A DNA stretch of 64,000 nt from a virus (lineage: Duplodnaviria; Heunggongvirae; Uroviricota; Caudoviricetes). The position numbers were made by a program, and so were the translations under genes. The notes beneath the pieces were generated by a model. It saw only the letters and a program-made list of their open reading frames with translations. It was not told the origin of the DNA and did no database searches. The DNA is taken from positions 13,528 to 77,527 of the IMG/VR virus record IMGVR_UViG_3300000553_000021; one strand, written 5' to 3'. Positions 6,574 to 64,000 of this stretch are shown here, piece by piece. Numbering within the stretch: the first letter of the stretch is position 1; every line of letters begins with the position of its first letter.

Positions 6574-6576
6574 GTT

Positions 6577-10806: not shown

Positions 10807-10838
10807 TCTTATATTTATATATTATAGAGGAAAATAAT

Positions 10839-12456: not shown

Positions 12457-12459
12457 GGT

Positions 12460-13245
12460 ATGTACAAAATATTGTCAACCGGTACTTCATTTAATCATGG
12501 ACTGGGATTGCATTTTTATGAAAGATATAATAATAGTTTACCTCTAAACTATATATTGTCAGAAAAAGAAAGAAAATTTAATGTAGATAATTCATTTCAT
12601 TCTATTTTAGCTAAAAGATTAAATGTAGAAAGTGAAATATATTCAGGTGATAATTTTGGGTTAGATACAGCCTTTGATGACTTAATATGTGGTATTAAGT
12701 TAGAAGTTGAAAAGGAACAACCAATACCAATAAAAATTGTGATAATACAATTATCAACCGCAGAAAAAGATTTTTTTATATACAATAATAAAGTTTTTAG
12801 GTTAAACTTTAATTCACCGCATGTGTTTTTAGCATCAAAAAATAAATTGATTGATAGTATAGATAATTCTATTAAAGAAGATTTTATACAAAAATTAGAA
12901 TTAGAATTTGATAAATATTTTACAAACACAACATTGTGGAGAGAACAACATTCTATATGGTTCGTTGATAAATTAAATGAATTACATGATTATCTTTTAA
13001 AAAAAGGAGTTACACTAAAAATAATATCATATTATAATGATTTTAATTCAGTTATAGATTCATTTAAAGAAAATATGTTTGTAACCTTTTTATATAATGG
13101 CGCTAAATTTTATAATGTAAAATCTTTAGTAGATGATAAAAAACTAAGAATAAAAGATGATATATCAATAACAAATGATGAACATCCTAATTTCAAAGCA
13201 CATGAAATAGTTGCAAATAATATATTCGATTCATTAAATATTTAA
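12460..13245 (+). CDS. hypothetical protein
   Basis: ORF track, 261 aa. Confidence 0.5.
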   Translation: MYKILSTGTSFNHGLGLHFYERYNNSLPLNYILSEKERKFNVDNSFHSILAKRLNVESEIYSGDNFGLDTAFDDLICGIKLEVEKEQPIPIKIVIIQLSTAEKDFFIYNNKVFRLNFNSPHVFLASKNKLIDSIDNSIKEDFIQKLELEFDKYFTNTTLWREQHSIWFVDKLNELHDYLLKKGVTLKIISYYNDFNSVIDSFKENMFVTFLYNGAKFYNVKSLVDDKKLRIKDDISITNDEHPNFKAHEIVANNIFDSLNI

Positions 13246-36616: not shown

Positions 36617-37444
36617 ATGAATACAATGAAATTTACAACAATCGGTAATGCTAAAAAGGTAACTGGTTTATCTTATTTAGGTAGTGTAGCAAGTAGTTCA
36701 AAAATTGCTAAAGGTTTAAAGTACAATGAGATGACTTATATATTGTATCTTGCACCTGCTGAACAAAGTGGTTATAATGTTTGTCCTGGTTCTACCGAAG
36801 AATGCCGAACAGCGTGTTTAACTGAAAGTGGACATAATAGAATTGACGTAAAGAAAAACGCAATCAATAACGCTCGTATCAAAAAGACTAAATTGTTCTT
36901 TGAGCATAGAGAGTTCTTTATGGCTTGGTTGATTATGGAAATTACAAAAGCTAGAGTTGAAGCAATTAAGCAAGGTTATAAGTTTTCAGTTCGTATCAAT
37001 GGTACATCTGATATTAGTTTAGTTAGTTTCAAATTAGGTGATATGAATATATTGGAGTATTTTCCAAATGTTCAATTCTATGATTATACTAAAGTTGCTA
37101 ATCGTTTCAAATTGACTGAAAAATATCCTAACTACGATTTAACATATTCGTTCAGCGGTTACAATATGTTACAATCTATGGAGTTATTACAAAGTGACAA
37201 AGGTAGGGTTGCTATGGTATTTGAGGGTAAAGTATTACCTAAAACCTTTATGGGTATTGAGGTTATTGATGGTGATGCATATGATATGAGATACTACGAT
37301 GCAAAGAATGTTATTGTAGGATTGAAGTTTAAGAAAGTAAGAAATAAAATTGATACTGCTAACAACAAGTTCATTATACCAATGGATAGTAAATTTAGTG
37401 TTTATGAAAAACAACAAACGAAAGTTAAAGTTACTGCCAAATAG
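36617..37444 (+). CDS. hypothetical protein with CPGSTEECRTAC Cys motif
   Basis: ORF track 275 aa; first gene after the repeat/promoter module. Confidence 0.5.
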   Translation: MNTMKFTTIGNAKKVTGLSYLGSVASSSKIAKGLKYNEMTYILYLAPAEQSGYNVCPGSTEECRTACLTESGHNRIDVKKNAINNARIKKTKLFFEHREFFMAWLIMEITKARVEAIKQGYKFSVRINGTSDISLVSFKLGDMNILEYFPNVQFYDYTKVANRFKLTEKYPNYDLTYSFSGYNMLQSMELLQSDKGRVAMVFEGKVLPKTFMGIEVIDGDAYDMRYYDAKNVIVGLKFKKVRNKIDTANNKFIIPMDSKFSVYEKQQTKVKVTAK

Positions 37445-41689: not shown

Positions 41690-42052
41690 ATGAGTATACA
41701 AAAAATGAGTAGAAACCCTATAATGTTAGTAGATAAGGTATTTGAAATTCCATTATTTGCCGCTACGGGACAACAATACATATGTACCGAAGTTGCAGAT
41801 TTAGGTGTGGATGCACGTAGTAAAAGATATGGGGTATATTTAAAATGGCTTCCAACATCATATTCAGTACCTGAAGTATTAAGAATGGATATTGAAATAT
41901 TTAGTTCATCTAATAGTTTAATTAATGTAACCTTATATGAAAAAACGGATAATGGTAGTTATGTTGTAACTTGTAATGGAACATTTCTTAGGGATTTAAT
42001 ATCAACACCTAGTAAAATACAAAGATTGATTACTGAACTAATTAACAAATAA
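41690..42052 (+). CDS. hypothetical protein, paralog of 48039..48407
   Basis: Shared MLVDK.F.IP.F.A.T..Y.C..V......YSVPE pattern. Confidence 0.5.
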   Translation: MSIQKMSRNPIMLVDKVFEIPLFAATGQQYICTEVADLGVDARSKRYGVYLKWLPTSYSVPEVLRMDIEIFSSSNSLINVTLYEKTDNGSYVVTCNGTFLRDLISTPSKIQRLITELINK

Positions 42053-42429
42053 TGAAAACAAAAACATACTTTAGTGAGTTTCGTAGTGACATTGCGGTAG
42101 CTATTTTGGGTAAAGATGATTACCGATATGATGTTCTCAAACCTATCTTTGATGAATGTGGTTTTGGATTTACCGAAACATCATCAGCATGTGTATTCAT
42201 TGATGGTGAGATTAAACTAACCAAAGATGAATTGAAGTGGGTTGAGGCACATGAGGTAGCACATATATTATTAAAACATACAAAGGATAGAAACCCTAAC
42301 GATGAAATAGCAGCAGATATGTTTGCAATCATCTTACTAAAAGATAAAGGATATAATAAAGCCGCACAATTAGTAGAGGACAAATTTGAAGAAAGACATA
42401 AACGTAAATATTATGAAACTAACAATTAA
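42052..42429 (+). CDS. ImmA/IrrE-family zinc metallopeptidase (DUF955-like)
   Basis: HEVAHILLKH (HExxH) followed by EIAADMFAIILL (E..A..FA block). Confidence 0.55.
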   Translation: MKTKTYFSEFRSDIAVAILGKDDYRYDVLKPIFDECGFGFTETSSACVFIDGEIKLTKDELKWVEAHEVAHILLKHTKDRNPNDEIAADMFAIILLKDKGYNKAAQLVEDKFEERHKRKYYETNN

Positions 42430-42721
42430 TAACTTTAAGAAACTTAAAGAACAAAGATGGGATGAACAAAACTATATTGAAAGTATTACTGAAAAAGTTG
42501 ACCGTTATGAAATTAGTGTATGGAGAGACCATATGCGACAATATATTATGTTAGAAAGAAAGCCAGTAGAAAATGGTTATTACATAATTGGTAAATGGAG
42601 TAACGAAGCACATTGTGTAAGATATCCATATTGGATAAAGCATGAGGATATAGTGGATATTACAAAACTGATGGATAAACTTAAATTAATGACAGATAGT
42701 TGGTCACCTAAATTATTATAA
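42413..42721 (+). CDS. MLTIKNI-family small protein (divergent member, MKLTINN start)
   Basis: ORF track 42386..42721; internal ATG 42413 gives MKLTINNFKKL...RYEISVW...GYYIIGKWS matching family blocks. Confidence 0.4.
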   Translation: MKLTINNFKKLKEQRWDEQNYIESITEKVDRYEISVWRDHMRQYIMLERKPVENGYYIIGKWSNEAHCVRYPYWIKHEDIVDITKLMDKLKLMTDSWSPKLL

Positions 42722-43779: not shown

Positions 43780-44088
43780 ATGATAACAATTGCAAATATA
43801 AGATCAGAGTTAATGCATATGCAAATATATGATGGGATTTATATAGATGATATTATAGAAAAGAAAAAAAATGGTTATAATATATATCATATATGTTTAA
43901 GAAATCATGAGGGTGCAACATACAACATTTTCTTTTATAGAGAATTGGGACAGGGTGGTATACCTACAAAATATCTATTTGGTTGTCCTGAAGCAGAATT
44001 GGGTGAGTATTTAAGTGAGGATGAAGTAAAAGCAAAGGGTATGGTGATATACACATTTACCAAATTAATTAAATCAGCAAGAGGATAA
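43780..44088 (+). CDS. MLTIKNI-family small protein
   Basis: MITIANIRSEL...YNIYHICLRNHEG...TYNIFFYRE. Confidence 0.5.
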   Translation: MITIANIRSELMHMQIYDGIYIDDIIEKKKNGYNIYHICLRNHEGATYNIFFYRELGQGGIPTKYLFGCPEAELGEYLSEDEVKAKGMVIYTFTKLIKSARG

Positions 44089-44089
44089 T

Positions 44090-44449
44090 ATGTTACACAT
44101 TAAAAACTATTCAAAAATAATAGGTGACTTTATTGAATATAAAGAATATACATTAGGTATCGAATCTATAACACAAATGGCAGACAGCTATCATATATTA
44201 GTTTACTTAAATCGTGATGGAGTAAAAGAGGACTATATCGGTATGGAATTGACACGAACTAAAAAAGCAAAGTATAGATACCAATTATATCAAACACATA
44301 TGCATCATAATAATACCGCAGTGACATTAGATTGTATCCAGAATTTAGATTGGTTTGGGTATATAATATGTAAAATGGCAGGTAATGGTAATTGGCAGAT
44401 GAATATACCAGCATGGTCACAAAATAACCCTAGTAAAAAAATAAATTAA
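44090..44449 (+). CDS. MLTIKNI-family small protein
   Basis: MLHIKNYSKIIG...SYHILVYLNRDG...YRYQLYQTH. Confidence 0.5.
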   Translation: MLHIKNYSKIIGDFIEYKEYTLGIESITQMADSYHILVYLNRDGVKEDYIGMELTRTKKAKYRYQLYQTHMHHNNTAVTLDCIQNLDWFGYIICKMAGNGNWQMNIPAWSQNNPSKKIN

Positions 44450-45315: not shown

Positions 45316-45969
45316 ATGAAATTAACACTAAATAAAGGTCAGAAGTTATGGTTTACAAGTGACACACATTATAACCACGCTAACATTTGTAGTTCAACAA
45401 CAAAGTGGACAGACCCGGTGACTTGTAGAGAGTTCAATACATTAGAACATATGAACGCACATTTAGTTGGTAATATAAATGAAGTAGTTGGACAAGATGA
45501 TATTTTATTTCATTTGGGAGATTGGAGCTTCGGTGGGTTTGAACAAATACAAAAGTTTAGAGACCAAATTGTATGTAAGAATGTTCACCTTATATTGGGT
45601 AATCACGACCACCACATTGAAAACAATAGATTTGATTGCCAAAACTTATTTAGTTCAGTAAACAAATATTTGGACTTGACTGTAAAATGGAATGTGGGTA
45701 CGCCGTTTAGTGGTGAACATAAATTTATATTAATGCACTTTCCAATTGCAAGTTGGGATAATATGGCAAGAGGTTCAATTCATTTGCACGGACACGTTCA
45801 CTTTACTGCCGATAAAAGAATTGGTTTAGGTAAAATGATGGATGTAGGTTGTGATGGTAACAATTTATATCCAATTGAAATGAGTGAAGTATTTAAGTTG
45901 TTGAGAAACCAACCAATCAAAAGTTTATTTGAATTTGACCATCATGAAATTGTAGAAAACTATAAATAA
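45316..45969 (+). CDS. calcineurin-like metallophosphoesterase
   Basis: SDTHY (DxH), LGDWSF (GD), LGNHDHH (GNHD), HGHVHF (GHxH). Confidence 0.65.
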   Translation: MKLTLNKGQKLWFTSDTHYNHANICSSTTKWTDPVTCREFNTLEHMNAHLVGNINEVVGQDDILFHLGDWSFGGFEQIQKFRDQIVCKNVHLILGNHDHHIENNRFDCQNLFSSVNKYLDLTVKWNVGTPFSGEHKFILMHFPIASWDNMARGSIHLHGHVHFTADKRIGLGKMMDVGCDGNNLYPIEMSEVFKLLRNQPIKSLFEFDHHEIVENYK

Positions 45970-45975
45970 TATAAT

Positions 45976-46287
45976 ATGCTAACAATAAATAATATAGATG
46001 GTATAGTAGGACTCTCTGCAAATGGTAACCGAATAAACGGATTTAGATTAGATAATAACAATTTGATATCTGGAAATCATTATGTGTTTGTAATGAAACA
46101 AAATTACAATAGTAGAAAGATTGAAGTGTGGTTAAATAGAAACCGAAATGAATTGGGTAAATATCAAATGTTTGTTATGGGTTGGAAAAGTGGAACAATT
46201 ATTGAAGTGACACCAAATCAATTAAAAGATGCCGTTGAAGGTGCCGTATGTGTTAGAGACTGTTTACAATTATTAGATAAATGCTAA
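45976..46287 (+). CDS. MLTIKNI-family small protein
   Basis: MLTINNIDGIVG...HYVFVM...IEVWLNRNR...GKYQMFVMG. Confidence 0.5.
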   Translation: MLTINNIDGIVGLSANGNRINGFRLDNNNLISGNHYVFVMKQNYNSRKIEVWLNRNRNELGKYQMFVMGWKSGTIIEVTPNQLKDAVEGAVCVRDCLQLLDKC

Positions 46288-46297
46288 AATATAAAAT

Positions 46298-47392
46298 ATG
46301 AAATTAGAAACGATTTACAAAAAGACAAAGACTGGTGCAACGCAAGAGTGGACAATTGAAGTAGTGGGTAATAAATACCGAACTCATAGTGGACAAGTTG
46401 GTGGACAAATTACAACGAATGAATGGACAATCGTTTATGGTAAGAATGAGGGTAAGTTAAATGAAACTACCGATAAGGAGCAAGCAATGAAAGAAGCGGT
46501 AGCTAAACGAACAAAGAAGTTAGAGAGTGGTTACTTTGAGAATGTTAAAGATATTAATAAGCAACAATACTTTGAACCTATGTTAGCTGCTAAATGGGAA
46601 GATTGTAAAGATAAGGTTACATATCCTATTTACTCTCAACCAAAGTTAGATGGTATTCGTTGTATAGTGACACGACATGGTATGTTTAGTAGAAATGGTA
46701 AACCAATCATTTCAGCTCCACATATTTTCAAAGCATTAGTTCCACTATTTGAGGAAACGCCTGATTTGATATTTGATGGTGAGTTATATGCTGATAAGTT
46801 TGCTAATGATTTCAATAAAATTGTATCGTTAGTTAAGAAAACAAAACCAACGGATAAGGACTTAAAAGAAAGTAAAAAGAATATTCAGTATCACATTTAC
46901 GATTTACCAAGTGTTGATGATACATTTAAGGTTAGATATTCAACATTATGTTCATTGAGATTACCAAAAGAATGTATTGTAGTAAAAACACATTTGGCCA
47001 AAAATGAAGATATTGTAATGGAACGATATGGTGAATATGTAGAAGCAGGTTACGAAGGACAGATGTTAAGAATAGATGGTTTGTATGAAAACAAACGAAG
47101 TAAGAACTTATTAAAACACAAATCGTTTGTTGATGATGAATATACTATTTTAGATATTGTAGAGGGTGAGGGAAACCGAACTGGAACTGCTGGGTATATG
47201 GTATTTGAGACAGAGGATGGTAAACGCTTCAAATCAAATGTAAAAGGAACTTGGGATGAAACTGCTGAAATGCTTAAAAGTAAAAAGAAACTAATAGGTA
47301 AACAAGCAACGATTAAGTATTTTAACTTAACGCCAGATGGAATACCTCGTTTCCCTTATGTAATTAATATAGATAGAGAAAGTTATGAATAG
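46298..47392 (+). CDS. lig: ATP-dependent DNA ligase
   Basis: Motif I SQPKLDGIRC (KxDG), III LIFDGELYA, IV YEGQMLRID, V NLLKHKS. Confidence 0.8.
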   Translation: MKLETIYKKTKTGATQEWTIEVVGNKYRTHSGQVGGQITTNEWTIVYGKNEGKLNETTDKEQAMKEAVAKRTKKLESGYFENVKDINKQQYFEPMLAAKWEDCKDKVTYPIYSQPKLDGIRCIVTRHGMFSRNGKPIISAPHIFKALVPLFEETPDLIFDGELYADKFANDFNKIVSLVKKTKPTDKDLKESKKNIQYHIYDLPSVDDTFKVRYSTLCSLRLPKECIVVKTHLAKNEDIVMERYGEYVEAGYEGQMLRIDGLYENKRSKNLLKHKSFVDDEYTILDIVEGEGNRTGTAGYMVFETEDGKRFKSNVKGTWDETAEMLKSKKKLIGKQATIKYFNLTPDGIPRFPYVINIDRESYE

Positions 47393-47708
47393 ACCAATAA
47401 ATTTTAGAAAGATAAATAATACAAAATTCACAACATCAAAAGGATATGAATATTCGTTTCAATACGATGGTGTACATCCTGAGGTGTGGGTATTTCGTTT
47501 TCCTGATAATACAAACAATGTTTTGGCATTTATTATGATATGGGAATATCAAAGATATGAAATAAGGAGAGCCGGAAATGGTAAAGGTACTACTTGGATT
47601 GATACACTACACAAAGGAAGCTTTGATAAAGCAACTATGAAAACAATGGATTCATTTACCGATTGGGTGAAAGATAGAATAGAACATTTTGAATCACAAT
47701 ACGATTAA
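47385..47708 (+). CDS. hypothetical protein
   Basis: ORF track. Confidence 0.45.
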   Translation: MNRPINFRKINNTKFTTSKGYEYSFQYDGVHPEVWVFRFPDNTNNVLAFIMIWEYQRYEIRRAGNGKGTTWIDTLHKGSFDKATMKTMDSFTDWVKDRIEHFESQYD

Positions 47709-47709
47709 T

Positions 47710-48027
47710 ATGATAACAATACAAAATTTAGATAAAATATTAGCAATCAATTCACAGAGAGTTGAAGTGATGCATTTTCAAGAATATAATAGTTTATATG
47801 AATTTGAATTTATGCATGATAACATTAATTCAACTACATTCAGAGTTCATATGAATAGACATCATGATTGGGGTGATAAGGGTTCGTATAGAATGAAATT
47901 GTGGGATAGTATATCCAGTTCACCATTGGAATATAACTTTGAATTGTATAATGTAAAAGACCCATTTTGTTTATTAGCATATTTGCATGATGTAATTATG
48001 GATTGGGATATAATAACAAATAAATAA
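47710..48027 (+). CDS. MLTIKNI-family small protein
   Basis: ATG 47710 gives MITIQNLDKIL...; ORF track 47689..48027. Confidence 0.5.
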   Translation: MITIQNLDKILAINSQRVEVMHFQEYNSLYEFEFMHDNINSTTFRVHMNRHHDWGDKGSYRMKLWDSISSSPLEYNFELYNVKDPFCLLAYLHDVIMDWDIITNK

Positions 48028-48038
48028 AATAATAAAGT

Positions 48039-48407
48039 ATGAAATCAATTAAAAAAGAAAAAGGAGCATGGATGTTAGTAGATAAAGAGTTTAACATTCC
48101 AGTATTCAATGCAAATACACAAATGTATAAATGTATTGATGTTAGTGAAATAGCATCATCACCGGGAGGTAAAGATTACACTATTTCTTTAAGTGAAGTA
48201 AAACAACAATATTCAGTTCCAGAAAGAATAAATATTGATTTGTTTATACCAATTGATGGAAATGGTGGACTTGCTCATGTAACAATGAATGAGGTAGACC
48301 CAAAACGTGGTGATGTTAAATTAGGACAGACACTTACTCCCAAAGAAAACATAACTACTTTGGAAGGACTTAAAAAAGTATTTTACGAAATGGCAAAAAA
48401 AATGTAA
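48039..48407 (+). CDS. hypothetical protein, paralog of 41690..42052
   Basis: WMLVDKEFNIPVF...QYSVPERINIDLF parallels MLVDKVFEIPLF...SYSVPEVLRMDIEIF. Confidence 0.5.
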   Translation: MKSIKKEKGAWMLVDKEFNIPVFNANTQMYKCIDVSEIASSPGGKDYTISLSEVKQQYSVPERINIDLFIPIDGNGGLAHVTMNEVDPKRGDVKLGQTLTPKENITTLEGLKKVFYEMAKKM

Positions 48408-48408
48408 T

Positions 48409-48702
48409 ATGTTAAAGATAAATAATCCGACTGATATATTAGGAATGAATTTTGTAGGTGGCAAATACAAATTAAAGGAAGCCGAAGAACATGATGATAG
48501 ATATACATTTTCATTTCAAGATACCGATACAAATTGGGTAATCATTCACATATATCGAAAACCTATATGGGATAGTGAAAGAAGTGTAAATATGTATAGT
48601 GTGGACAATGGAACAATGCGTAATCATAGAGTATCTGCTAAATGGTTTGGTATGATTAAGAATGTTCAACTTACATTTAATGAAGCATTAAAAGATTTAT
48701 AG
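48409..48702 (+). CDS. MLTIKNI-family small protein
   Basis: MLKINNPTDILGM... Confidence 0.5.
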   Translation: MLKINNPTDILGMNFVGGKYKLKEAEEHDDRYTFSFQDTDTNWVIIHIYRKPIWDSERSVNMYSVDNGTMRNHRVSAKWFGMIKNVQLTFNEALKDL

Positions 48703-48703
48703 T

Positions 48704-49246
48704 ATGAGAAAGAAAATAATATTCATCGATATAGATGGACCATTAGCATGGGGAACATGGATGGATGGTAAGGTTAAGATAAACGAAAACACATCGGCAG
48801 AGTTTACAATACCTTACGCTTGGGATAGGGCAGATTGTGAAGCATTAGCTGAGATATGTGATAAAACAAATGCTGAATTAGTGTTAAGTTCTGATTGGAA
48901 AATGCATTTCACATTAAAACAAATGAGTGACATTTTCATTGAGTATGGTATCTATGCAAAACTTATTGATACCACAACCCATATGAATACCAGACAAATG
49001 GGGATATGGAATAAGATGAGTAATCCATCTTTAGAGTTTGAAAGAGCACATCAAATTGCGAAATGGGCTAAGGATAATAAAATTAGTAATTGGATTGCAA
49101 TTGATGATATGAAGTTAAGTGCAGAGTTCAAATGGATGAATGCTCGTATTCCAATGTGGAGGCATGTACAAGTTACTGGTGATTTTGGATATGGTGGTAG
49201 GTTAAGAGATAAGGTTGATGAATGTATTAAAAAACTAAATAAATAA
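48704..49246 (+). CDS. HAD-like hydrolase
   Basis: IIFIDIDGPLA motif I variant; WIAIDDMK (motif IV-like). Confidence 0.4.
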   Translation: MRKKIIFIDIDGPLAWGTWMDGKVKINENTSAEFTIPYAWDRADCEALAEICDKTNAELVLSSDWKMHFTLKQMSDIFIEYGIYAKLIDTTTHMNTRQMGIWNKMSNPSLEFERAHQIAKWAKDNKISNWIAIDDMKLSAEFKWMNARIPMWRHVQVTGDFGYGGRLRDKVDECIKKLNK

Positions 49247-53013: not shown

Positions 53014-53704
53014 TGACACTCATGGTAGACACAATGAGATTACTAGTTTATATAGTGAGTTACCCTATGTAGACATGATTATACATAGTGGGGATTGTAC
53101 TCGTTATGGTGAATATGATGAAACGGATTTGTTTCTAAAATGGTATGCAAATAAAAATGCTAAACATAAGGTATTAATTGCAGGTAATCATGATTTTGTA
53201 TTTCAGAATCAAGATAGAAAGAATTTGTTATTAGCAAACAATCCAACAATTACTTATTTAGAAGATGAGTATATTAATATAGATGGTATGGGTATCTATG
53301 GTAGTCCATGGTCACCTATTTATGGTATGTGGGCATTTATGAAACATAGAAACCAAGAATTAGATGAAGTATGGCAAAAAGTTCCTACTGATGGTAGTAT
53401 AGATATATTAGTTACACATACACCTAGATATGGTAGACATGATATAAGTGTAAGAGGTAATTATCATGTTGGTTGTGAAATGTTAGCAAATCGTATCAAT
53501 GATATTAAACCTAAAGTGCATGTATGTGGACATATACATGAATGTGGTGGTATGATTGTTGAGGAAACATATGAAACACCAATAAAAGGAATGGTTAGTT
53601 TAAATGCATCTTTATTAGATATTAGATATTATTTATCTAATCCTATATGGATATGGGATACTGAAAGTGATGAATGGAGTTCAATAAATAAACATGAAAA
53701 ATAA
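52988..53704 (+). CDS. calcineurin-like metallophosphoesterase
   Basis: ISDTHGRH, HSGDCTRYG, AGNHDF, CGHIHE; start may be 53003 (MFISDTHG). Confidence 0.65.
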   Translation: MVMKIMFISDTHGRHNEITSLYSELPYVDMIIHSGDCTRYGEYDETDLFLKWYANKNAKHKVLIAGNHDFVFQNQDRKNLLLANNPTITYLEDEYINIDGMGIYGSPWSPIYGMWAFMKHRNQELDEVWQKVPTDGSIDILVTHTPRYGRHDISVRGNYHVGCEMLANRINDIKPKVHVCGHIHECGGMIVEETYETPIKGMVSLNASLLDIRYYLSNPIWIWDTESDEWSSINKHEK

Positions 53705-54332
53705 ACTTTGGGTATTCGGTTGTTCATTATCTACTGGATTTGGTGGACACAATTATGTTGTAAACGAAAACAAAACATGGCCTAAATTATTAGCAGATAA
53801 ATTGAATTTAGAATTAGATAATTCAGCACATGCCGGTCAATGTAATTGGGTTTCAATACTACAATTTATTGATAAGAGAGATCAAATACAAAAAGGTGAT
53901 AAGGTAATATTTGAATTTACATTCTTTGATAGATATAATATTTATCCAACTCGTGCACAATTAATAGATTTAGAAGCATTTTTTATTCAACATAAACATG
54001 ATTTAAGTGAAGTATCACAACAATATAGAGATACCAATTTTAACTGGTTTAAAAAACAAGTTTTAAAGTGGTGTTTAGATAATGATATAAATTTATATGT
54101 ATGGAGTGTTGAGGGACAAACCCATATAGAGTTTAAAAGATACAACGAAATAATTGAATTTATTACAGCACCAAATTCAACGAATGATAATATAAATTAT
54201 TCATTTTATTATAAATGGCAAGATATATCAAATGAACAACATATAGTTAAACCTAATGGTGAAATAGATAGACATTTTAATGAATTAGGACATCAACGAA
54301 TGGCAAATCATTTTTATTCTAAGATAATTTGA
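53694..54332 (+). CDS. SGNH-hydrolase-like protein (paralog of 54893..55648)
   Basis: N-terminal LWVFGCSLSTGFGG; C-terminal DRHFNELGHQRMANHF (DxxH block). Confidence 0.45.
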   Translation: MKNKLWVFGCSLSTGFGGHNYVVNENKTWPKLLADKLNLELDNSAHAGQCNWVSILQFIDKRDQIQKGDKVIFEFTFFDRYNIYPTRAQLIDLEAFFIQHKHDLSEVSQQYRDTNFNWFKKQVLKWCLDNDINLYVWSVEGQTHIEFKRYNEIIEFITAPNSTNDNINYSFYYKWQDISNEQHIVKPNGEIDRHFNELGHQRMANHFYSKII

Positions 54333-54358: not shown

Positions 54359-54613
54359 ATGATTAAGTTAGAAGCATTTGAACCATTTAAAGAAGCTAAC
54401 CCAGAATTAGCAGCAACGGGTAAATATGGTGTATTAGTATTAGACAAAGGTACATGGATACCACTTGAAATAACTGAAGAAGATTTCGGTAAATATAAAC
54501 AAGTACATCCACAAAGCCAAAATCAAACAGATGAGGATAAGGCTTTGCATGAAGCCGCTTTTGAAACAAATAAAGGTGGACATTCTGCTTGGGTATTAGT
54601 AGAATTGGTATAA
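54359..54613 (+). CDS. small hypothetical protein, tandem paralog A
   Basis: LEAFEPFK...GVLVLDKGTWIPLEITEEDFGKY vs the next ORF. Confidence 0.45.
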   Translation: MIKLEAFEPFKEANPELAATGKYGVLVLDKGTWIPLEITEEDFGKYKQVHPQSQNQTDEDKALHEAAFETNKGGHSAWVLVELV

Positions 54614-54628
54614 TTAAAATAATATAAT

Positions 54629-54889
54629 ATGTTACAATTAAATGCCTTTAATCATTTTAAAAATGAAATTAAAAATAAACCCTTAGTTGATGAGGGTTTA
54701 TTTGGTGTCTTAGTCCTAACAAAACAAAGTTGGGTGCCCACTAAAATAACAGAACAAGACTTTGCCCGTTATGAACATGTATCTTATTATGATAGTGAGG
54801 AACTTCGTATTAAATTAGAAGATGCAGCTTGGAAATTGGGAAATACAATAGCACCAATGTGGCCGTTAGTTAGATTAATTGAATGGTAA
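54629..54889 (+). CDS. small hypothetical protein, tandem paralog B
   Basis: LNAFNHFK...GVLVLTKQSWVPTKITEQDFARY. Confidence 0.45.
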   Translation: MLQLNAFNHFKNEIKNKPLVDEGLFGVLVLTKQSWVPTKITEQDFARYEHVSYYDSEELRIKLEDAAWKLGNTIAPMWPLVRLIEW

Positions 54890-54892
54890 TTA

Positions 54893-55648
54893 ATGAATAA
54901 GTTATACATTTACGGATGTTCACATAGTGCAGGTAATTTATTAGGTTACGCACATACTGAAAATCAATATTTAGAAAAGTTAGGAGAGGGTATTAGATAT
55001 TTATCTACTCAATATACCGAATGGCTTGGTCATATTGGTAATCCTTTTTATGTGCAATTAGCAAATGAATTGGGATTGGAGTGGATATTAAGAGCTGAAG
55101 GTGGGCATAGTAATCAACAACAATTCAAAAGATTATTAGGTGATTTACATAAAATAAACAAAGATGATACTATAATATTTCAATTTACACATTTTGTTAG
55201 ATTTGAAGTTCCAATTTTACAAAACGGCAAGTGGATAAGTGATGGTTGGCAAAAGGGTGGTAGTTTGGTATTTGACGATCCTAAATACCAACATTTTTAT
55301 TTAACACATTTGGATTTTGAAATACCATTTATAATAGAAATAGTTAAACAAATACTTACATTATTAAAATACATAGAAACCAATATAGGTGCAAAAGTTT
55401 ATATTTGGTCAATGGATAGTATTAGTGATGAAATAAATGAATATACTAAATTAGTAGAACAGCCTAATTTAATTAGATTTGAAATAGATGGTGAAATCTA
55501 CAATTATTTAAGTGGTGTTACCAATAGTATAGATAGAAATGAACACTTTATAATTAAGCATGAAACAAAAGGTGAAGTTGATGATATGCATTTTGGTGAA
55601 TTAGGTCATAAATTTATGTATGAAAATATTTTGAAGTTTATAAAATAA
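54893..55648 (+). CDS. SGNH-hydrolase-like protein
   Basis: LYIYGCSHSAGNLLG; C-terminal DDMHFGELGHKFMYENI. Confidence 0.45.
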   Translation: MNKLYIYGCSHSAGNLLGYAHTENQYLEKLGEGIRYLSTQYTEWLGHIGNPFYVQLANELGLEWILRAEGGHSNQQQFKRLLGDLHKINKDDTIIFQFTHFVRFEVPILQNGKWISDGWQKGGSLVFDDPKYQHFYLTHLDFEIPFIIEIVKQILTLLKYIETNIGAKVYIWSMDSISDEINEYTKLVEQPNLIRFEIDGEIYNYLSGVTNSIDRNEHFIIKHETKGEVDDMHFGELGHKFMYENILKFIK

Positions 55649-56786: not shown

Positions 56787-56978
56787 ATGGAAAAAATATA
56801 CGCACAAAGAATGATAGAATGGTCAGAACAAGCAAAAGAAACATTGACCATTCGTAAAGAAATTATAATTGATGATACTATAACCGATGAGCAATTGGGA
56901 ATTATCATTAGACAAATGTATTCAGCAAAAGTAGAAGCAGAAAATGAATCAATAGATAGATGTAAAAAATATGTTTAG
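56787..56978 (+). CDS. hypothetical protein
   Basis: ORF track. Confidence 0.35.
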   Translation: MEKIYAQRMIEWSEQAKETLTIRKEIIIDDTITDEQLGIIIRQMYSAKVEAENESIDRCKKYV

Positions 56979-57589
56979 TGAAAGAGTATTATTGTAGATA
57001 TTGTGGAAAGGAAAGTACATATACGGATGTAGATTATTTAATAGGTAACGATCATTTGAGTTGTGTATTAAACGCAATGGATGAAGCTAAAAAACCAAAA
57101 GTTATGAAAATTAAAGGGTGGGAAAAAATAAGTGGATATGTATACAAAGGATATGCATTAGTAAATCCAATACACAATGCCGGTGAGACAAAATATATGG
57201 TAGATGTATTAGACTTAAACTTACCACATAAACCAAAATGGGAATTGAGTGTATTGACATCGGAACATAAATGGTTGGGTAGCAAATCAGATAATTTTGG
57301 TATCTTATTGTGGGATGATAATCGTATGAATGTAACACGTTCAGTTAATAAAGAGGACATGCAATCACTAGCAAAGTTTAATAGAGTATTTGAGGAAATG
57401 ATAGATGAAATGTTGGGAATAAGATTAGCATCAGCACCAGCATATAGTAGCCATTCAATGGGGGGTATTGTAAATAATGTAACTAATAGTGGAACTACAA
57501 TACCATATGCACAAATGATACAAACTCAACAAAGTTTATCAGCACAAATTAAACAATTAACTAAAAAGATAAATGGTGGAAGCAAATAA
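56978..57589 (+). CDS. hypothetical protein
   Basis: ORF track 203 aa; N-terminal CRYCGKE Cys pair. Confidence 0.5.
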   Translation: MKEYYCRYCGKESTYTDVDYLIGNDHLSCVLNAMDEAKKPKVMKIKGWEKISGYVYKGYALVNPIHNAGETKYMVDVLDLNLPHKPKWELSVLTSEHKWLGSKSDNFGILLWDDNRMNVTRSVNKEDMQSLAKFNRVFEEMIDEMLGIRLASAPAYSSHSMGGIVNNVTNSGTTIPYAQMIQTQQSLSAQIKQLTKKINGGSK

Positions 57590-59098: not shown

Positions 59099-59398
59099 TT
59101 GCTTACTATTAAAAACATATCAAAGTTAAATGGGTACGAAGCACATCCTTGGAAAATAGATACAATATCGACCAATGATGACACTTATATATTCTTAATT
59201 GATAACGCCGATAAACATTTTATAACTACGGCAGTATTACATAGAATACCACAAGATATTGATGGAAATATACTATATAGTTTGACCGTTTATAGGGATG
59301 AACAATTAATACCTAAAAGCCTATTAAGTTCACCTAAATCATTGGGTAAACATATTATAAATTTACTTAATATGATTGAGTTTACCAATCCTTTTTAA
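59099..59398 (+). CDS. MLTIKNI-family small protein (TTG start)
   Basis: (L)LTIKNISKLNG...TYIFLI...AVLHRIPQDIDG. Confidence 0.45.
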   Translation: MLTIKNISKLNGYEAHPWKIDTISTNDDTYIFLIDNADKHFITTAVLHRIPQDIDGNILYSLTVYRDEQLIPKSLLSSPKSLGKHIINLLNMIEFTNPF

Positions 59399-59449
59399 CA
59401 TATATAACTGGTTGAAAATCAATGAATTAGCTCTAAAATACCAATATTT

Positions 59450-59480
59450 TTGGTAGTTTGGGGCTTTTTTCGTATCTTTG
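59450..59480 (+). promoter_or_regulatory. promoter (-33 TTG 59450-52; -7 TATCTTTG 59473-80), leaderless into ATG 59486
   Basis: TTTCGTATCTTTGACTATATG is the same block as 17786-17800. Confidence 0.5.
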
Positions 59481-59485
59481 ACTAT

Positions 59486-59752
59486 ATGATAACAATTAAA
59501 AATAGTGATGCAATTATCCGACGAGACCTTACTGATAATTGGTATGTGTTGGGTATTAAGATGGGTTATAATGCATATTATATTAATCTAACACAAACGG
59601 GTGCATTAAAATTCAAAAATTGTAAGTTATTTAGAGAGCCAAATGCAGCCGGTTTATACATACTCAAACATGGGAATTATACGTGTTCACTAACCAAACA
59701 GCAATTAGGTGATATGAATTATGTTTTAAAATGTTTAGAAACTTTTATATGA
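59486..59752 (+). CDS. MLTIKNI-family small protein
   Basis: MITIKNSDAIIRR...; ORF track 59450..59752 trimmed to the ATG after the promoter. Confidence 0.5.
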   Translation: MITIKNSDAIIRRDLTDNWYVLGIKMGYNAYYINLTQTGALKFKNCKLFREPNAAGLYILKHGNYTCSLTKQQLGDMNYVLKCLETFI

Positions 59753-60048
59753 TAACAATAAAGAATTACAGCGAGATATGTGGCCATAAGGTAGGAGTTA
59801 ATGGACATAGAATTGTAGGTGTGGATGAATTACCAACACAATATAGTATTATTATTTATGATAATGTAAACCCACGTTTTACAATATGTTTAGAACGATT
59901 GGGTATTAATGGTGATTATGAATTATGGGTAAGAAATGTATCACCATATACAAATCATAAAATAATTAAAAGATTAATGATACCAAAAGCAGATATTCAA
60001 AACAAATGGATATTATTAGAACATTTAGACGAGTTATTAAGTAAATAA
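59749..60048 (+). CDS. MLTIKNI-family small protein
   Basis: MITIKNYSEICG...; ATGA overlap with the upstream stop. Confidence 0.5.
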   Translation: MITIKNYSEICGHKVGVNGHRIVGVDELPTQYSIIIYDNVNPRFTICLERLGINGDYELWVRNVSPYTNHKIIKRLMIPKADIQNKWILLEHLDELLSK

Positions 60049-60143
60049 TGTACGATAAGCAAACGATAGTATATGTAGTGGTGATTATGTTGATGTATGT
60101 TTATTACCTATATGATTATATTAAAAAGAAAAACAAATAAGTT

Positions 60144-60464
60144 ATGTTCAAAGCAGGAGACCACTACATACATTTTACTAAATATGGTGGCGTAAACAAA
60201 GGTATTGTAAAAAGAATTGCCTATTCTAATGTATGGGATGGTGCAAACAAAGTGGTATATAAAAGACCACATATCATTACACAAAACAATTTCAATTTGG
60301 AATTAGATGGTAGTGATGGTAGAGTATATAAAATAGATAGAGAAATTACAGAGGAGCAAGTAGCTAAAATGGCTGAGTTTGTATCCGATATAAAAGATAG
60401 AAAGGAACAAACTAAAAAAGATATAACTAAAAGATTTGAAAAAACAATCTTACCATTAAAATAA
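60144..60464 (+). CDS. hypothetical protein
   Basis: ORF track; TAAGTTATG context. Confidence 0.45.
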   Translation: MFKAGDHYIHFTKYGGVNKGIVKRIAYSNVWDGANKVVYKRPHIITQNNFNLELDGSDGRVYKIDREITEEQVAKMAEFVSDIKDRKEQTKKDITKRFEKTILPLK

Positions 60465-60469
60465 ACAAT

Positions 60470-61348
60470 ATGAATTTAGGTTACGCTTGTATTAACATGA
60501 GTATGGGTAAGAAGGTCACTACAAACCGAACAATGGTTAAGAGGACCTTTGAGGCTAAGGGGTTAGATTATGTATCGGAGTTAGCGTTGCTTAATTCAAA
60601 GGATATTATCAAAGTATTAGAATGGAATAGACAGAATGGAATTATGTTCTTTCGTTTATCCTCAACAATAATACCTTGGGGTGACCACATTGATATAACT
60701 ACTCTCAAAGATTACAAAGAGATTAAGAGTGAGTTAAAGAAAGCCGGTGACTTCGCTAAGTTCTGGAATATGAGGATAACATCACATCCAGGTCCGTTCA
60801 ATGTATTAGTATCGCCTAAAGAGGAAGTGGTATTAAATACGATAGCTGATTTAGAATTACATGCTAAGATATTTGATATGATGGGGTTATCTAAAACACC
60901 TTATAACAAAATTAATATACATTGTAACGGAGTGTATGGCGATAAGATAAAAGCAATGGATAGATTTTGTGATAACTTTGCACGATTATCCGATTCAGTT
61001 CGTAGCCGATTAACAATTGAGAATGATGACAAAGCTAGTATGTATTCAGTTAAGGACTTAATGTATATTCACAATAAGATAGGAATACCTATTACATTTG
61101 ATTATCATCATCATAAATTTTGTACCGGTGGATTGAGTGAGCAAGAAGCATTGGAGTTAGCAATAACAACATGGCCTAAAGGTATAACGCCAGCAGTTCA
61201 CTATTCGGAAAGTAGAGACGATAAGAAACCGCAGGCACATAGTGATTACATTGAAAGGTTACCTGAAACATATGGTAATGTGGTGGACATAATGGTAGAA
61301 GCAAAACAAAAAGAATTAGCAATATTAAAATTTATAAAGAATGATTAA
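60470..61348 (+). CDS. uvdE: UV-damage endonuclease UvdE/Uve1 family
   Basis: LGYACINMS start, FRLSS, SHPGPFNVL, TIENDD, FDYHHH, VHYSE, MVEAKQKELA blocks typical of the UVDE TIM-barrel family. Confidence 0.65.
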   Translation: MNLGYACINMSMGKKVTTNRTMVKRTFEAKGLDYVSELALLNSKDIIKVLEWNRQNGIMFFRLSSTIIPWGDHIDITTLKDYKEIKSELKKAGDFAKFWNMRITSHPGPFNVLVSPKEEVVLNTIADLELHAKIFDMMGLSKTPYNKINIHCNGVYGDKIKAMDRFCDNFARLSDSVRSRLTIENDDKASMYSVKDLMYIHNKIGIPITFDYHHHKFCTGGLSEQEALELAITTWPKGITPAVHYSESRDDKKPQAHSDYIERLPETYGNVVDIMVEAKQKELAILKFIKND

Positions 61349-61517
61349 AGTATTAAAATCAATCGGACGGGCAGCATTAATTATATTAGGTGGATTAACA
61401 CTTGGAGTTTCTTTATTTGCAATATGCAATAATATAACTGCAGATTGGGCAATTGTATCATTGGTTTGTATTTTAATAGGAATTACTGCATTTATAGATT
61501 ACAAAATAAACAATTAA
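61341..61517 (+). CDS. small membrane protein (58 aa)
   Basis: two TM helices; overlaps upstream stop; not in ORF track. Confidence 0.3.
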   Translation: MIKVLKSIGRAALIILGGLTLGVSLFAICNNITADWAIVSLVCILIGITAFIDYKINN

Positions 61518-61518
61518 T

Positions 61519-61758
61519 ATGATAACAGGAATAGTAATATACTTAATAGGATTTTTTTTAACACTAACATTTTTCAAATACTTTGGAGTTAAGATAGGAT
61601 TTGATTATACAAATAATACATCGTGGGATGATTGGAGTAGTAATGAGACAGCATATACTGCATTTGCATTAACATGGTTTGCAGTAGTACCAATGTTATT
61701 AATAGCAGGTATTATGCGAGCAGTATTTTTATTTTGTAAATGGTATTTAAAAAGATAA
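61519..61758 (+). CDS. small membrane protein
   Basis: two TM helices. Confidence 0.4.
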   Translation: MITGIVIYLIGFFLTLTFFKYFGVKIGFDYTNNTSWDDWSSNETAYTAFALTWFAVVPMLLIAGIMRAVFLFCKWYLKR

Positions 61759-61762
61759 AACA

Positions 61763-61984
61763 ATGACATTAGAATTTAGTTTATTAAGTAAATACAAATC
61801 GTTGGTGGGAATAGTAGTAGAAAGACACGGTAAGATGTTGAAAGATAATGATGGTAAACCATTGTTCCAATCAACCGTCGTTATTAGTTTAGGTTTCCTA
61901 TTTGGTTATCTGTCACTACACTTTGATTTGGGTGCGGCAATAGCAATGGATGATATGATTACACGATATAAAGACACATTATAA
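61763..61984 (+). CDS. small membrane protein
   Basis: ORF track. Confidence 0.4.
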   Translation: MTLEFSLLSKYKSLVGIVVERHGKMLKDNDGKPLFQSTVVISLGFLFGYLSLHFDLGAAIAMDDMITRYKDTL

Positions 61985-61985
61985 T

Positions 61986-62249
61986 ATGCTAACAATTAAA
62001 AATCCACAAAGGTTAATAGGTGAGGAATATAGTGATTGGTTAAAAGTAATTAGTGTAAAAGAACATAATAATCATTATGAGTTTACATTAGCTAATAAAG
62101 AAATGAGCCAAATAGAAACTTTCTTATTACATAGAAAACGAACAGAGAATGGCAATTATATACTGGAATATAATAGTCACACACTATGGTTAAATAAAGA
62201 TGAATTTGACACAATCGATAAGATTATAATTTGTATGCAAACTATATAA
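61986..62249 (+). CDS. MLTIKNI-family small protein
   Basis: MLTIKNPQRLIGE...HYEFTL...FLLHRKRTENGNYILEYNS. Confidence 0.5.
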   Translation: MLTIKNPQRLIGEEYSDWLKVISVKEHNNHYEFTLANKEMSQIETFLLHRKRTENGNYILEYNSHTLWLNKDEFDTIDKIIICMQTI

Positions 62250-62253
62250 GAAT

Positions 62254-62565
62254 ATGCTAGTAATAAAAAACATAGATAAGATAGCCGGTAGACATATAGA
62301 AACAACATGTGGTATTTTTGAAATATACAATATAATACAAAAGGATCATGTATATGGATTTACATTGAGAAATTTTGATAATCATAATAACTTTGTTCAA
62401 TTGAAGTTAGCTAGAACAAACCCAGTTTTATATAATGACCATTATCAGTTATCAATCAATGGATTTAGTGGAACATATGTTATGCTAAATGCTAGTGGGT
62501 TATCGGATAAAGAAAAGTTTTTAGAATGGATGGTAGAATTGTTGAATAGTCATTGGAATAAATAG
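62254..62565 (+). CDS. MLTIKNI-family small protein
   Basis: MLVIKNIDKIAGR... Confidence 0.5.
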   Translation: MLVIKNIDKIAGRHIETTCGIFEIYNIIQKDHVYGFTLRNFDNHNNFVQLKLARTNPVLYNDHYQLSINGFSGTYVMLNASGLSDKEKFLEWMVELLNSHWNK

Positions 62566-62631
62566 CAGCGGGGGCTGGGGGGACTCGGTGTCGATTAGGA
62601 AAATTTTTTGATAGTAGAAAACATATATACA

Positions 62632-62937
62632 ATGCTTACAATAACTAATATAGATAAGTTACAAAATGAAATGGTTGCATACAATGGTAGTAATTGGATG
62701 GTAACTAAAATCAATATTAATAATGAGTTAGATTACTACGGAATAGTGATACGAAAACAACCTGATACAGCAGGTGAATATATAGTATTCTACTTAATGA
62801 GAGACAGTGTTGGTGATGGGGAATATGAATTACATAGTAACAAAAGTAGTACAAAGAGACGGATACACACAACGGATATAAAGACTCTGTATAAATTCTT
62901 ATCATTAATACAAAAAGAAATTCGTAGGTTATGCTAA
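62632..62937 (+). CDS. MLTIKNI-family small protein
   Basis: MLTITNIDKLQNE...; ORF track 62608..62937. Confidence 0.5.
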   Translation: MLTITNIDKLQNEMVAYNGSNWMVTKININNELDYYGIVIRKQPDTAGEYIVFYLMRDSVGDGEYELHSNKSSTKRRIHTTDIKTLYKFLSLIQKEIRRLC

Positions 62938-63275
62938 ACATACAAAACATATTTAGAATAAGACATAAGACAATACAAATAGGTGGTGAGACGTGGACAA
63001 TAGATAATGCATTAGAACTTGATTTATTAGATGGTAATTATTATCAATTCAGTATACATTCATTCTTTAATAACCAAATGGTTTACATATTTTTGAATAG
63101 AGAAACAAAAGGAGAAAAGCAAAAAGAACAAATCTATAATCATTTTGAAAGGAGAGGTGAACATTATGAGTTGACAAATAGTTGGAATACGGATATGGTT
63201 ACAATTAATAAAGAACTATTAAGTATACCAGGATTATTATTGTTTATGCAACATATGTTAGAAACAATAAAATAG
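62931..63275 (+). CDS. MLTIKNI-family small protein
   Basis: MLNIQNIFRIRHK... Confidence 0.5.
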   Translation: MLNIQNIFRIRHKTIQIGGETWTIDNALELDLLDGNYYQFSIHSFFNNQMVYIFLNRETKGEKQKEQIYNHFERRGEHYELTNSWNTDMVTINKELLSIPGLLLFMQHMLETIK

Positions 63276-63281
63276 AATACA

Positions 63282-63611
63282 ATGCTAAAAATAAAGAATT
63301 ACTATTATGATAACCCAATGGGAAAGAATTATTATTTCTTTGAGGGTTGTAGTATGTATAATGCATTAGAAAAGGAATTAGTTTATGTATTTTTTATAAG
63401 AGATAAGGATTGTGTTAAACTATGTGAAATTAATTTAGCCAGAGAGCCTAATCCTGAGGGTAAGTATGGTATGTGGGGTGTGGCAGATGATACTAAATAC
63501 CGAACAACGCCGACTAGGTATATAGATAAGGAACTAATAACGAATTGGAACTGGGTAGTAACCGATATGAATGGAATTATACATGATATATTAAGAATGC
63601 AACAATGCTAA
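63282..63611 (+). CDS. MLTIKNI-family small protein
   Basis: MLKIKNYYYDNPM... Confidence 0.5.
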   Translation: MLKIKNYYYDNPMGKNYYFFEGCSMYNALEKELVYVFFIRDKDCVKLCEINLAREPNPEGKYGMWGVADDTKYRTTPTRYIDKELITNWNWVVTDMNGIIHDILRMQQC

Positions 63612-63928
63612 GAATAGAAAACATAGATAAAATAATCAATCAAAGAATTGTATTAAATATAGTAAGGCCAGATAGGAGAGGAACTTATTATATACTTAAC
63701 ACATGGAGATGGTTGCAAGAGGGAAATGAATTATACTATTTTCATTTGAGACATATAAACAAATTACATAGTGATGTGAGAATAGTATTGAATAGGTTTA
63801 AGACAGGTGAGGGTTATATACTTTGGGACGAGGATAACCCAAATAATAGTATGTTAGTAACGGCAGAACAAATGAAAGATAAACAAACCTTTCTTAAAGC
63901 AATTGAATTAATAATGGTAATGAAATAA
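63605..63928 (+). CDS. MLTIKNI-family small protein
   Basis: MLRIENIDKIINQ... Confidence 0.5.
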   Translation: MLRIENIDKIINQRIVLNIVRPDRRGTYYILNTWRWLQEGNELYYFHLRHINKLHSDVRIVLNRFKTGEGYILWDEDNPNNSMLVTAEQMKDKQTFLKAIELIMVMK

Positions 63929-63929
63929 T

Positions 63930-64000
63930 ATGCTAACGATAGAAAACATACAACGATTAAAAAACAAAACATTAGGAAATAGTTTCTATTATGTTGATAG
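63930..64000 (+). CDS. MLTIKNI-family small protein, 3' end outside window
   Basis: MLTIENIQRLKNKTLGNSFYYVD... runs to the window end. Confidence 0.45.
   Translation, partial: MLTIENIQRLKNKTLGNSFYYVD

Follow-up and report, generated by a model that had tools for sequence, protein, structure and literature searches.

A previously undescribed family of proteins of approximately 100 residues is encoded in the genome of a large uncultured phage, probably of a Bacteroidota host, and at least 28 copies of it are carried by this one genome, all on one strand. The DNA that was analysed, referred to here as the window, is a whole stretch of 64,000 nucleotides (nt) covering positions 13,528-77,527 of the IMG/VR record IMGVR_UViG_3300000553_000021. 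It contains 16 members of the family, six at 42.4-48.7 kb and ten in a tandem array at 59.1-64.0 kb. The array continues past base 64000 by 12 more copies in two contigs that are identical to the window (L019 and L021), in which it comprises 19 contiguous copies plus one outlier. A first-pass annotation, made from the sequence alone, had listed ten open reading frames (ORFs) of the array by their shared N-terminus (M-L-T-I-K-N-I and variants) and had counted 16 members. All ten ORFs were found with the N-termini given, the six upstream copies bring the total in the window to 16 as counted, and the members prove to be genuine, highly divergent paralogs with far more in common than a heptapeptide. 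The family is most likely a set of binding proteins.

The shared N-terminus is not a chance recurrence and is conserved at the level of protein. When the motif M-[L/I]-x-I-x-N was back-translated (ATG-HTN-NNN-ATH-NNN-AAY), it was found 17 times in the window, always on the plus strand, and 14 of these 17 matches open ORFs of approximately 100 amino acids (aa); 100 dinucleotide shuffles gave 4.7 +/- 2.2 occurrences, and none of them reached 17. Synonymous codons vary between copies (TTA, CTA or CTT for L2; ATT or ATA for I4; AAT or AAC for N6) and DNA-level repeats are limited to approximately 40 nt at the gene starts, with about 73% identity, so that the conservation lies in the protein, as had been proposed. 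M1, I4 and N6 do not vary in an alignment of 14 members, and neither do one Tyr and one Arg. Across 147 diverse members, I4, N6, Y31, R50 and Y58 are each conserved in at least 90% (residue numbering follows the copy at 61986), which confirms that the aromatic, basic and G.Y blocks described in the first-pass annotation are real.

Similarity over the full length of the proteins can be demonstrated without the motif. Leave-one-out hidden Markov models (HMMs), from which the first 12 residues had been deleted, recovered 12 of the 14 held-out copies within the top three of approximately 636 sequences searched, with E-values from 1.5e-8 to 8e-3. When 1.84 billion cluster representatives were searched exhaustively with an HMM, 421 clusters (50% identity) were matched at E <= 1e-3, and these matches align to profile positions 1-95, nearly always from protein residue 1. 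The earlier description of everything outside the heptapeptide as highly divergent holds for pairwise identity, which is low (median 21%), but it was overstated, as the full-length similarity is statistically significant. The possibility that no similarity exists beyond the heptapeptide is contradicted by the recovery with truncated profiles.

The fold of the family is predicted with high confidence. AlphaFold2 was run with the 147-sequence alignment for the 87-residue copy at 61986 and gave a model with a predicted local distance difference test (pLDDT) score of 94.7 and a predicted template modelling (pTM) score of 0.84. The model consists of a coil (residues 1-6), a helix (7-10), five strands (20-26, 30-36, 43-49, 58-62 and 65-69) and two further helices (71-74 and 77-86), and an independent model of the copy at 47710 has the same topology (pLDDT 84.5). 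Members are shown by these models as predicted single domains of approximately 100 residues, in which a short N-terminal helix is followed by a five-stranded antiparallel beta-meander and a C-terminal helix. Negative values of the grand average of hydropathy (GRAVY) and the lack of a hydrophobic N-terminus indicate that the domains are soluble.

Conserved and variable positions are distributed over this predicted fold in a regular manner. Strand positions 21, 24, 33, 35, 46, 48, 60 and 69 are conserved as hydrophobic and alternate with positions that have an entropy of 3.7-4.0 bits; L48 is among the conserved positions, beside I4, N6, Y31, R50 and Y58. This alternation implies that one face of the sheet forms a helix-covered core and that the other is exposed and hypervariable, and variability reaches its maximum in the hairpins and at the strand positions that point outward. 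Model and alignment together show a predicted fixed scaffold, made up of the MLTIKN segment, Y31, R50, Y58 and the core hydrophobic residues, with a variable surface. Y31, R50 and Y58 are in core-facing register, on the helix-covered side. In an antiparallel meander this places them at one and the same end of three adjacent strands, where they probably form one cluster. To judge from the strand topology and from its pLDDT of approximately 93 within the modelled domain, the N-terminal segment would pack on the Y31/R50/Y58 cluster.

The conserved N-terminus had been suggested to be a tag that could act as a packaging or targeting signal. A detachable tag on unrelated proteins is contradicted by the single full-length fold, by the confidently modelled N-terminus and by the position of the motif in three clusters (P0121, P0125 and P0126), where it is kept internally behind an N-terminal extension of approximately 70 aa, with F or K in place of M. 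No significant Pfam domain was found in these extensions. Because the motif is kept internally, it can do without a start codon and without a free N-terminus, and it would be part of the fold rather than a detachable tag. A protease site of the T4 type (L/I-x-E) is also not enriched after the motif among the 147 members: [LI]xE is present within the first 15 residues in 10 of them (7%) versus 12% in other 15-residue segments of the same proteins, although this consensus may not be the one of this phage. The phiKZ-type [SAG]xE is present within the first 20 residues in 26 of the 147, a count without a computed background. MLTIKN may instead cap the domain structurally or provide it with a common docking element. 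A resemblance of M-I/L-T-I-x-N to the sequence GITIN of EF-Tu, the site of the Lit/U49 peptidase, was set aside as too short.

The expansion of the family is ancient. Pairwise identity among the 28 copies has a median of 21% and does not exceed 37%, and adjacent copies are no closer to each other than distant ones, so the array did not arise by recent tandem duplication. Family orthologs in related phages are 53-73% identical, compared with 73-87% for the adjacent DNA ligase. Between two strains that are 99.4% identical, 71 of the 84 substitutions fall in family genes, with a ratio of nonsynonymous to synonymous substitution rates (dN/dS) of 0.35 versus 0.28 in other genes. At a dN/dS of 0.26-0.35, the family is under purifying selection. 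One strain allele of the copy at 62931 contains a 260-nt patch that is approximately 16% diverged, with 0.081 nonsynonymous (pN) and 0.31 synonymous (pS) differences per site and a pN/pS of about 0.26; this is the signature of an imported allele or of gene conversion, and not of hypermutation.

Although the copies are old, their number and arrangement shift quickly between relatives. The contigs L018 and L019, which are 99.4% identical, differ by a precise single-gene indel of approximately 330 bp, whose junction lies within the shared sequence ATGCTAACAATAAAAAAC and which leaves a chimeric MLTIKN/QYKL... gene; a third strain (L021) has a further copy-number difference. Among 80 ligase-anchored IMG/VR loci, 0-6 members are found within 21 kb, at shifting positions. 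These comparisons show copy number and alleles to shift by unequal homologous recombination in the conserved 5' codons together with patches of gene conversion. The indel junction in the conserved start codons implies that these codons double as a recombination substrate for expansion, contraction and shuffling. Copy-number variation among related phages, which had been named as a comparison to make, is therefore present and rapid. The term "diversifying" applies to gene content and to alleles shuffled by recombination, and does not apply to orthologs, which are under purifying selection, or to the ancient paralogs.

Multigene families of eukaryotic DNA viruses offer a useful comparison. The African swine fever virus (ASFV) multigene families (MGF) 110 and 360 and the host-range families of poxviruses evolve by tandem duplication and unequal crossover. 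They resemble the phage family in their many divergent paralogs within terminal or accessory regions, in the change of copy number by unequal recombination and in a presumed interaction with the host. Many co-oriented tandem paralogs, and strain differences in copy number with junctions in homologous segments, are features of viral multigene families that are seen here as well. The phage family differs in its bacterial host, in its much smaller single-domain members and in the absence of recent duplicates among its 28 copies. Viral multigene families shaped by unequal crossover are already known; this one is set apart by how large it is for a phage, by how old its copies are and by the two roles that its conserved first codons play.

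No library that was searched describes the family, and no convincing neighbour of its fold was found, in agreement with the first-pass annotation, which did not recognise it. No family of Pfam, PHROGs v4 or NCBIfam is matched by more than 2 of the 147 members (14 or 147 members were scanned), the matches being scattered noise, and all Pfam and NCBIfam matches are below curated cut-offs. A sequence profile search of the PDB gave a best E of 0.54, with chance matches to T-cell-receptor V-alpha (E > 0.5), and Foldseek found nothing in BFVD at E <= 0.001. Neither megablast of the region nor tblastn of the family consensus and the 61986 copy found a match in 50,697 cultured or GenBank phage records. 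The relatives that were examined are all unnamed metagenome proteins, and any with a name is called "hypothetical protein". Across 185,579 bacterial and archaeal species genomes, one N-terminal DNA pattern (MLTI[K/E/Q]NI[D/E/N]K) gave 48 matches; none of them passes the family HMM, so they are chance matches and were rejected as members. A narrower pattern gave 13 loci in IMG/VR, with true members in every one. The family looks specific to large uncultured phages on the strength of these searches. No described equivalent was found in the literature; the motif strings are absent from full-text sources, and the "moraphage" paper does not mention the family. One of the carriers is a 101-kb viral contig (L009, IMGVR_UViG_3300025392_000640) with 15 consecutive copies at 8400-12979. 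This array is flanked by genes for a tryptophan halogenase, a cyclophilin-type prolyl isomerase and a Cpn10 co-chaperonin, and Cpn60 is encoded on another family-bearing contig.

The six upstream members of the window, all on the plus strand like every other gene in it, begin with MKLTINNF... at 42413-42721 (102 aa; family HMM E 6.9e-17), a copy that is also found by leave-one-out HMMs without the N-terminus (E 5e-9 to 2e-4). MITIANI... at 43780-44088 (102 aa; HMM E 2.5e-11) is the most divergent copy and is missed by the HMMs once the N-terminus is removed. It is followed by MLHIKNY... at 44090-44449 (119 aa), by MLTINNI... at 45976-46287 (103 aa), directly 5' of the ATP-dependent DNA ligase, by MITIQNL... 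at 47710-48027 (105 aa), which was modelled independently and has 63 orthologs at 50% identity or more, and by MLKINNP... at 48409-48702 (97 aa). In a protein of 203 aa at 56978-57589 (plus strand), a CxxC segment at the N-terminus is followed by an internal domain with weak similarity to the family (VMKIKGWEKISGY...), which has an HMM E of 2.5e-4 over residues 47-150 and no equivalent of N6. This protein is a doubtful 29th member and may be a degenerate or fused relative.

A gene of 125 aa at 42052-42429 (plus strand), resembling a mini-metallopeptidase with an HExxH motif, overlaps the first member by 17 nt. Its HEVAH motif is visible, its matches to Peptidase_M48 and M78 are sub-threshold, and a weak U49 match is on record. 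In the window, and likewise in 9 of the 18 related loci, a family member starts within approximately 30 nt of the stop of this gene. The HExxH gene, which is conserved at 44-90% identity in related phages (loci L025-L059), may be a linked partner of the family.

The array begins with MLTIKNISKL at 59099-59398 (99 aa, TTG start), MITIKNSDAI at 59486-59752 (88 aa) and MITIKNYSEI at 59749-60048 (99 aa), whose start overlaps the upstream stop (ATGA). It is then interrupted at 60048-61984. The first-pass annotation held that only UvdE and three tiny membrane proteins interrupt it; these are indeed present (UvdE at 60470-61348, PF03851, E 1.2e-66; the three small hydrophobic proteins at 61341-61984), but ORFs of 30 and 106 aa are present too, and no ORF of the interruption other than UvdE has a Pfam match. 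The array resumes with MLTIKNPQRL at 61986-62249 (87 aa; HMM E 1.3e-23), the structural reference copy, and continues with MLVIKNIDKI at 62254-62565 (103 aa), MLTITNIDKL at 62632-62937 (101 aa), MLNIQNIFRI at 62931-63275 (114 aa), MLKIKNYYYD at 63282-63611 (109 aa) and MLRIENIDKI at 63605-63928 (107 aa). MLTIENIQRL at 63930-64000 is cut by the end of the window and is 101 aa long in the identical contigs. All of these are on the plus strand.

Genes of the array are co-oriented and spaced by -7 to +11 nt. Six junctions have the same 7-nt overlap, in which the upstream TAA stop lies inside the downstream start ATGCTAA in another frame (62931 and 63605 in the window; 9327, 10001, 10625 and 12230 in L019). 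This tight packing, together with the overlaps of stop and start, suggests polycistronic expression with translational coupling. A pattern match to a promoter-like site of the Bacteroidota type (-33/-7), TTTG-N20-TATCTTTG, is located at 59449-59480 on the plus strand, in an 87-nt gap that is the only sizeable one in the first trio of copies. It ends 5 nt upstream of the ATG at 59486, which supports this ATG, and not the upstream TTG at 59450, as the true start and implies that the transcript of this copy would be leaderless or near-leaderless. Within the array, a 66-nt G-rich intergenic element (GGGGCTGGGGGG ... TTTTTTGATAGTA) is found at 62566-62631 on the plus strand of this 30% G+C genome. 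It contains GGGGCTGGGGG(G) followed by TTTTTTGATAGTA and is 66-67 nt long. The element is single-copy in the window, and a second copy lies 3.6 kb downstream (L019 12551-12617), also within the array; the aligned stretches of approximately 120 nt that hold the two are 82% identical. A folding test gave no significant RNA fold for the element, and RNA structure was rejected. The element may accordingly be an internal regulatory site, a promoter or a terminator.

The assignment to a Bacteroidota host is an inference from several features taken together. Shine-Dalgarno motifs are not enriched in the window (8 of 103 genes versus 11.5 at random positions), the sequence upstream of starts is A-rich, and TTTG/TAnnTTTG promoter-like sites are enriched (17 versus 6.4 +/- 2.4 expected). 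A TonB-dependent receptor is also encoded at 19272-21803; this unusual auxiliary gene is full-length and SusC-like, with CarboxypepD_reg, Plug and beta-barrel domains. The window has a G+C content of approximately 30%, its PHROG matches are an exonuclease and a weak scaffold match, and a precomputed Pfam match on record assigns GP88 to 36617-37444. Proteins of the window have distant matches in an uncultured phage of 484 kb and in a Microcystis phage, and its IMG/VR relatives are up to 238-271 kb in size.

Family clusters are interleaved with repair and accessory genes, namely ATP-dependent ligase, HAD_SAK_2, two metallophosphoesterases (Metallophos), UvdE and glucosaminidase. No recognisable structural gene was seen beside either cluster in the annotated neighbourhoods, and the family is located in a non-structural accessory arm of the large phage. 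The repair-type genes among family members lie at 45316-49246 and 60470-61348 and encode a metallophosphoesterase, the ATP-dependent DNA ligase, the RNA-repair-associated HAD_SAK_2 and UvdE. Further genes of the window include two adjacent glycosyltransferase-like genes of the GT4 type within 5170-7839, the second of which (6577-7839) is under the Pfam gathering cut-off (23.3 versus 26.4 bits), and an AAA+ ATPase of the MoxR/CbbQ type at 28126-29358. Two paralog pairs without a Pfam match are also present. One is made up of 84 and 86 aa at 54359-54613 and 54629-54889 (MIKLEAFEPFK and MLQLNAFNHFK), and the other of 212 and 251 aa at 53694-54332 and 54893-55648, whose N-termini (FGCSLS and YGCSHS) resemble a GDSL-type motif by eye alone. 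The region at approximately 53.9-55.9 kb is a second variable cassette beside the array, as other genes are found there (290-2315) in L018 and L020, strains that are otherwise 99.3% identical.

The variable surface of the fixed scaffold provides a possible explanation for the function of the family. Each paralog would bind a different partner through this surface. Taken as a whole, the array would supply a repertoire of binders or inhibitors that are translated from polycistronic transcripts, act inside the Bacteroidota host cell and serve host takeover or counter-defence. The full explanation, which joins scaffold and evolution to such a repertoire, is tentative and falls somewhat short of probable; its structural and evolutionary parts alone are much more secure. 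Several points weigh against it. There is no homology or strong fold match to a known anti-defence protein (anti-CRISPR and similar) or host-takeover protein. Any family that is old and has diverged widely will show high entropy at its exposed positions, which is thus no proof of a binding surface, and a dN/dS below 1 gives no indication of an arms race at the level of orthologs. The docking of the N-terminus on the Y/R/Y cluster is a deduction from strand topology and pLDDT. Finally, the nearest phage precedent, the 20-member family B of SPN3US, consists of virion head proteins and favours packaging (PMC5694885).

Packaging is the basis of an alternative explanation in which the members are internal or ejection proteins of the virion, the N-terminus or the Y/R/Y site directing them into the prohead, from which they would be injected with the DNA and act in the host immediately. 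Small size, a conserved N-terminus and a variable body fit this general pattern. The internal proteins of T4 (IPI, IPII, IPIII and the ip loci of T-even phages) are a diverse anti-restriction set that shares only a 10-residue capsid-targeting sequence, their known role being counter-defence (PMC3012670). They too are small, with a conserved N-terminal motif on the scale of a decapeptide, diverse bodies and loci that vary between relatives. In the family described here, however, what is shared is a whole fold with four further near-invariant residues, profile matches span positions 1-95, and the members are therefore not unrelated proteins with a common N-terminus. Its N-terminus is ordered and belongs to the fold in the model, L/I-x-E cleavage sites are not enriched after the motif, which survives internally behind the extensions of approximately 70 aa, and the genes lie away from head genes, no recognisable structural gene adjoining either cluster. 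The copy number is approximately ten times that of the T4 internal proteins. SPN3US family B (gp83, gp138-154, gp161 and gp237) and the inner-body families of phiKZ-like phages are closer in scale, being very large, mostly tandem families of large phages. The 20 members of family B are all head proteins, their function is unknown, and their number varies between related phages (PMC5694885). These proteins of approximately 275-500 aa are encoded in a structural region by a phage of another host and another lineage, and hhalign of the family profile against SPN3US gp144-gp154 gave a probability of 0.1% (E 0.46), so that a relationship was rejected for lack of profile similarity. Packaging, the main alternative, is on this evidence unlikely. 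An adaptor or chaperone role is a little more unlikely still. The invariant patch would in that case dock one shared partner of phage or host, for which the HExxH mini-peptidase is a candidate, and the variable face would select clients. The invariant cluster at one end of the sheet, set against a hypervariable remainder, agrees with this idea, as do weak fold neighbours that include type III secretion chaperones and YbjN-like proteins, and the HExxH gene, which overlaps the first member and has a member immediately after it in 10 of 19 loci, with a varying ortholog. This adjacency is not universal, though, and the related loci are not independent samples; the peptidase match is under Pfam thresholds, and the invariant residues lie on the helix-covered side and are perhaps purely structural. 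Compared with the alpha+beta fold of type III secretion chaperones and YbjN-like proteins, the family lacks the helix between strands 3 and 4, and YbjN was matched in one member only (E 0.15), with no consistent signal among the 147. A more specific version, which we consider improbable, is that the patch (MLTIKN with Y31/R50/Y58) couples all copies to a common effector, for example the adjacent HExxH mini-peptidase or a host protease, with approximately 28 faces capturing different host proteins. If this were true, the copies would form a family of adaptors through which chosen defence or housekeeping proteins of the host are inactivated, much like the families of substrate adaptors that large eukaryotic viruses have. 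To our knowledge, no such adaptor system is known in phages.

Tandem, small, divergent and soluble paralogs with strain-level variation in copy number are also what would be expected of an immunity or exclusion repertoire, that is, of inhibitors by which the infected cell is protected against bacterial polymorphic toxins or competing phages, as in the orphan-immunity arrays of Bacteroidales. The chances of this are slim, as no toxin gene lies near the array and no immunity Pfam is consistently matched (one Imm26 match, E 0.055, among 147 members). Immunity families normally occur in bacterial genomes, and the scan of genome contigs with one restricted N-terminal pattern confirmed no true member, all 48 of its 48 matches failing the HMM. 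Slimmer still are the chances that the members are nucleic-acid-binding regulators, each using the open face of its beta-sheet for its own RNA or DNA site, as in MS2-type coat proteins and single-strand-binding folds. The median isoelectric point (pI) of 8.6 would suit such a role, but pI ranges from 4.5 to 10, variability is greatest on the exposed face of the sheet, where no basic or aromatic position is conserved, and repeated DNA or RNA sites that would form a corresponding set were not seen. There remains the notion, raised in part in the first-pass annotation as a way in which the family might fail, that the N-terminus reflects only a translation-initiation or other DNA-level feature and that the ORFs have no other relationship or no function. 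In its favour, the 5' codons are A/T-rich, Shine-Dalgarno sites are not enriched in this phage, and the conserved 5' DNA does act as a recombination substrate. This explanation has next to no probability and is refuted by the variation of synonymous codons, the persistence of the motif when internal, the members found by profiles without the N-terminus, the dN/dS of 0.26-0.35, the confident fold prediction and the 421 clusters elsewhere.

Most tailed-phage genomes contain few or no paralogs (PMC5694885), and at least 28 ancient, individually conserved copies of one unannotated domain thus represent a major investment by this lineage. With members widespread in metagenomes and a fold that is predicted confidently, it is a clean candidate to be described as a new protein family. 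The strain comparison offers a concrete mechanism by which genes of the array may be gained and lost, namely unequal recombination in the first six conserved codons. Should the copies prove to bind targets in the host, the array would amount to a ready-made catalogue of modules for phage-host interaction from the poorly studied large phages of Bacteroidota, and the domain would be a compact scaffold that is naturally tolerant of extreme surface variation.

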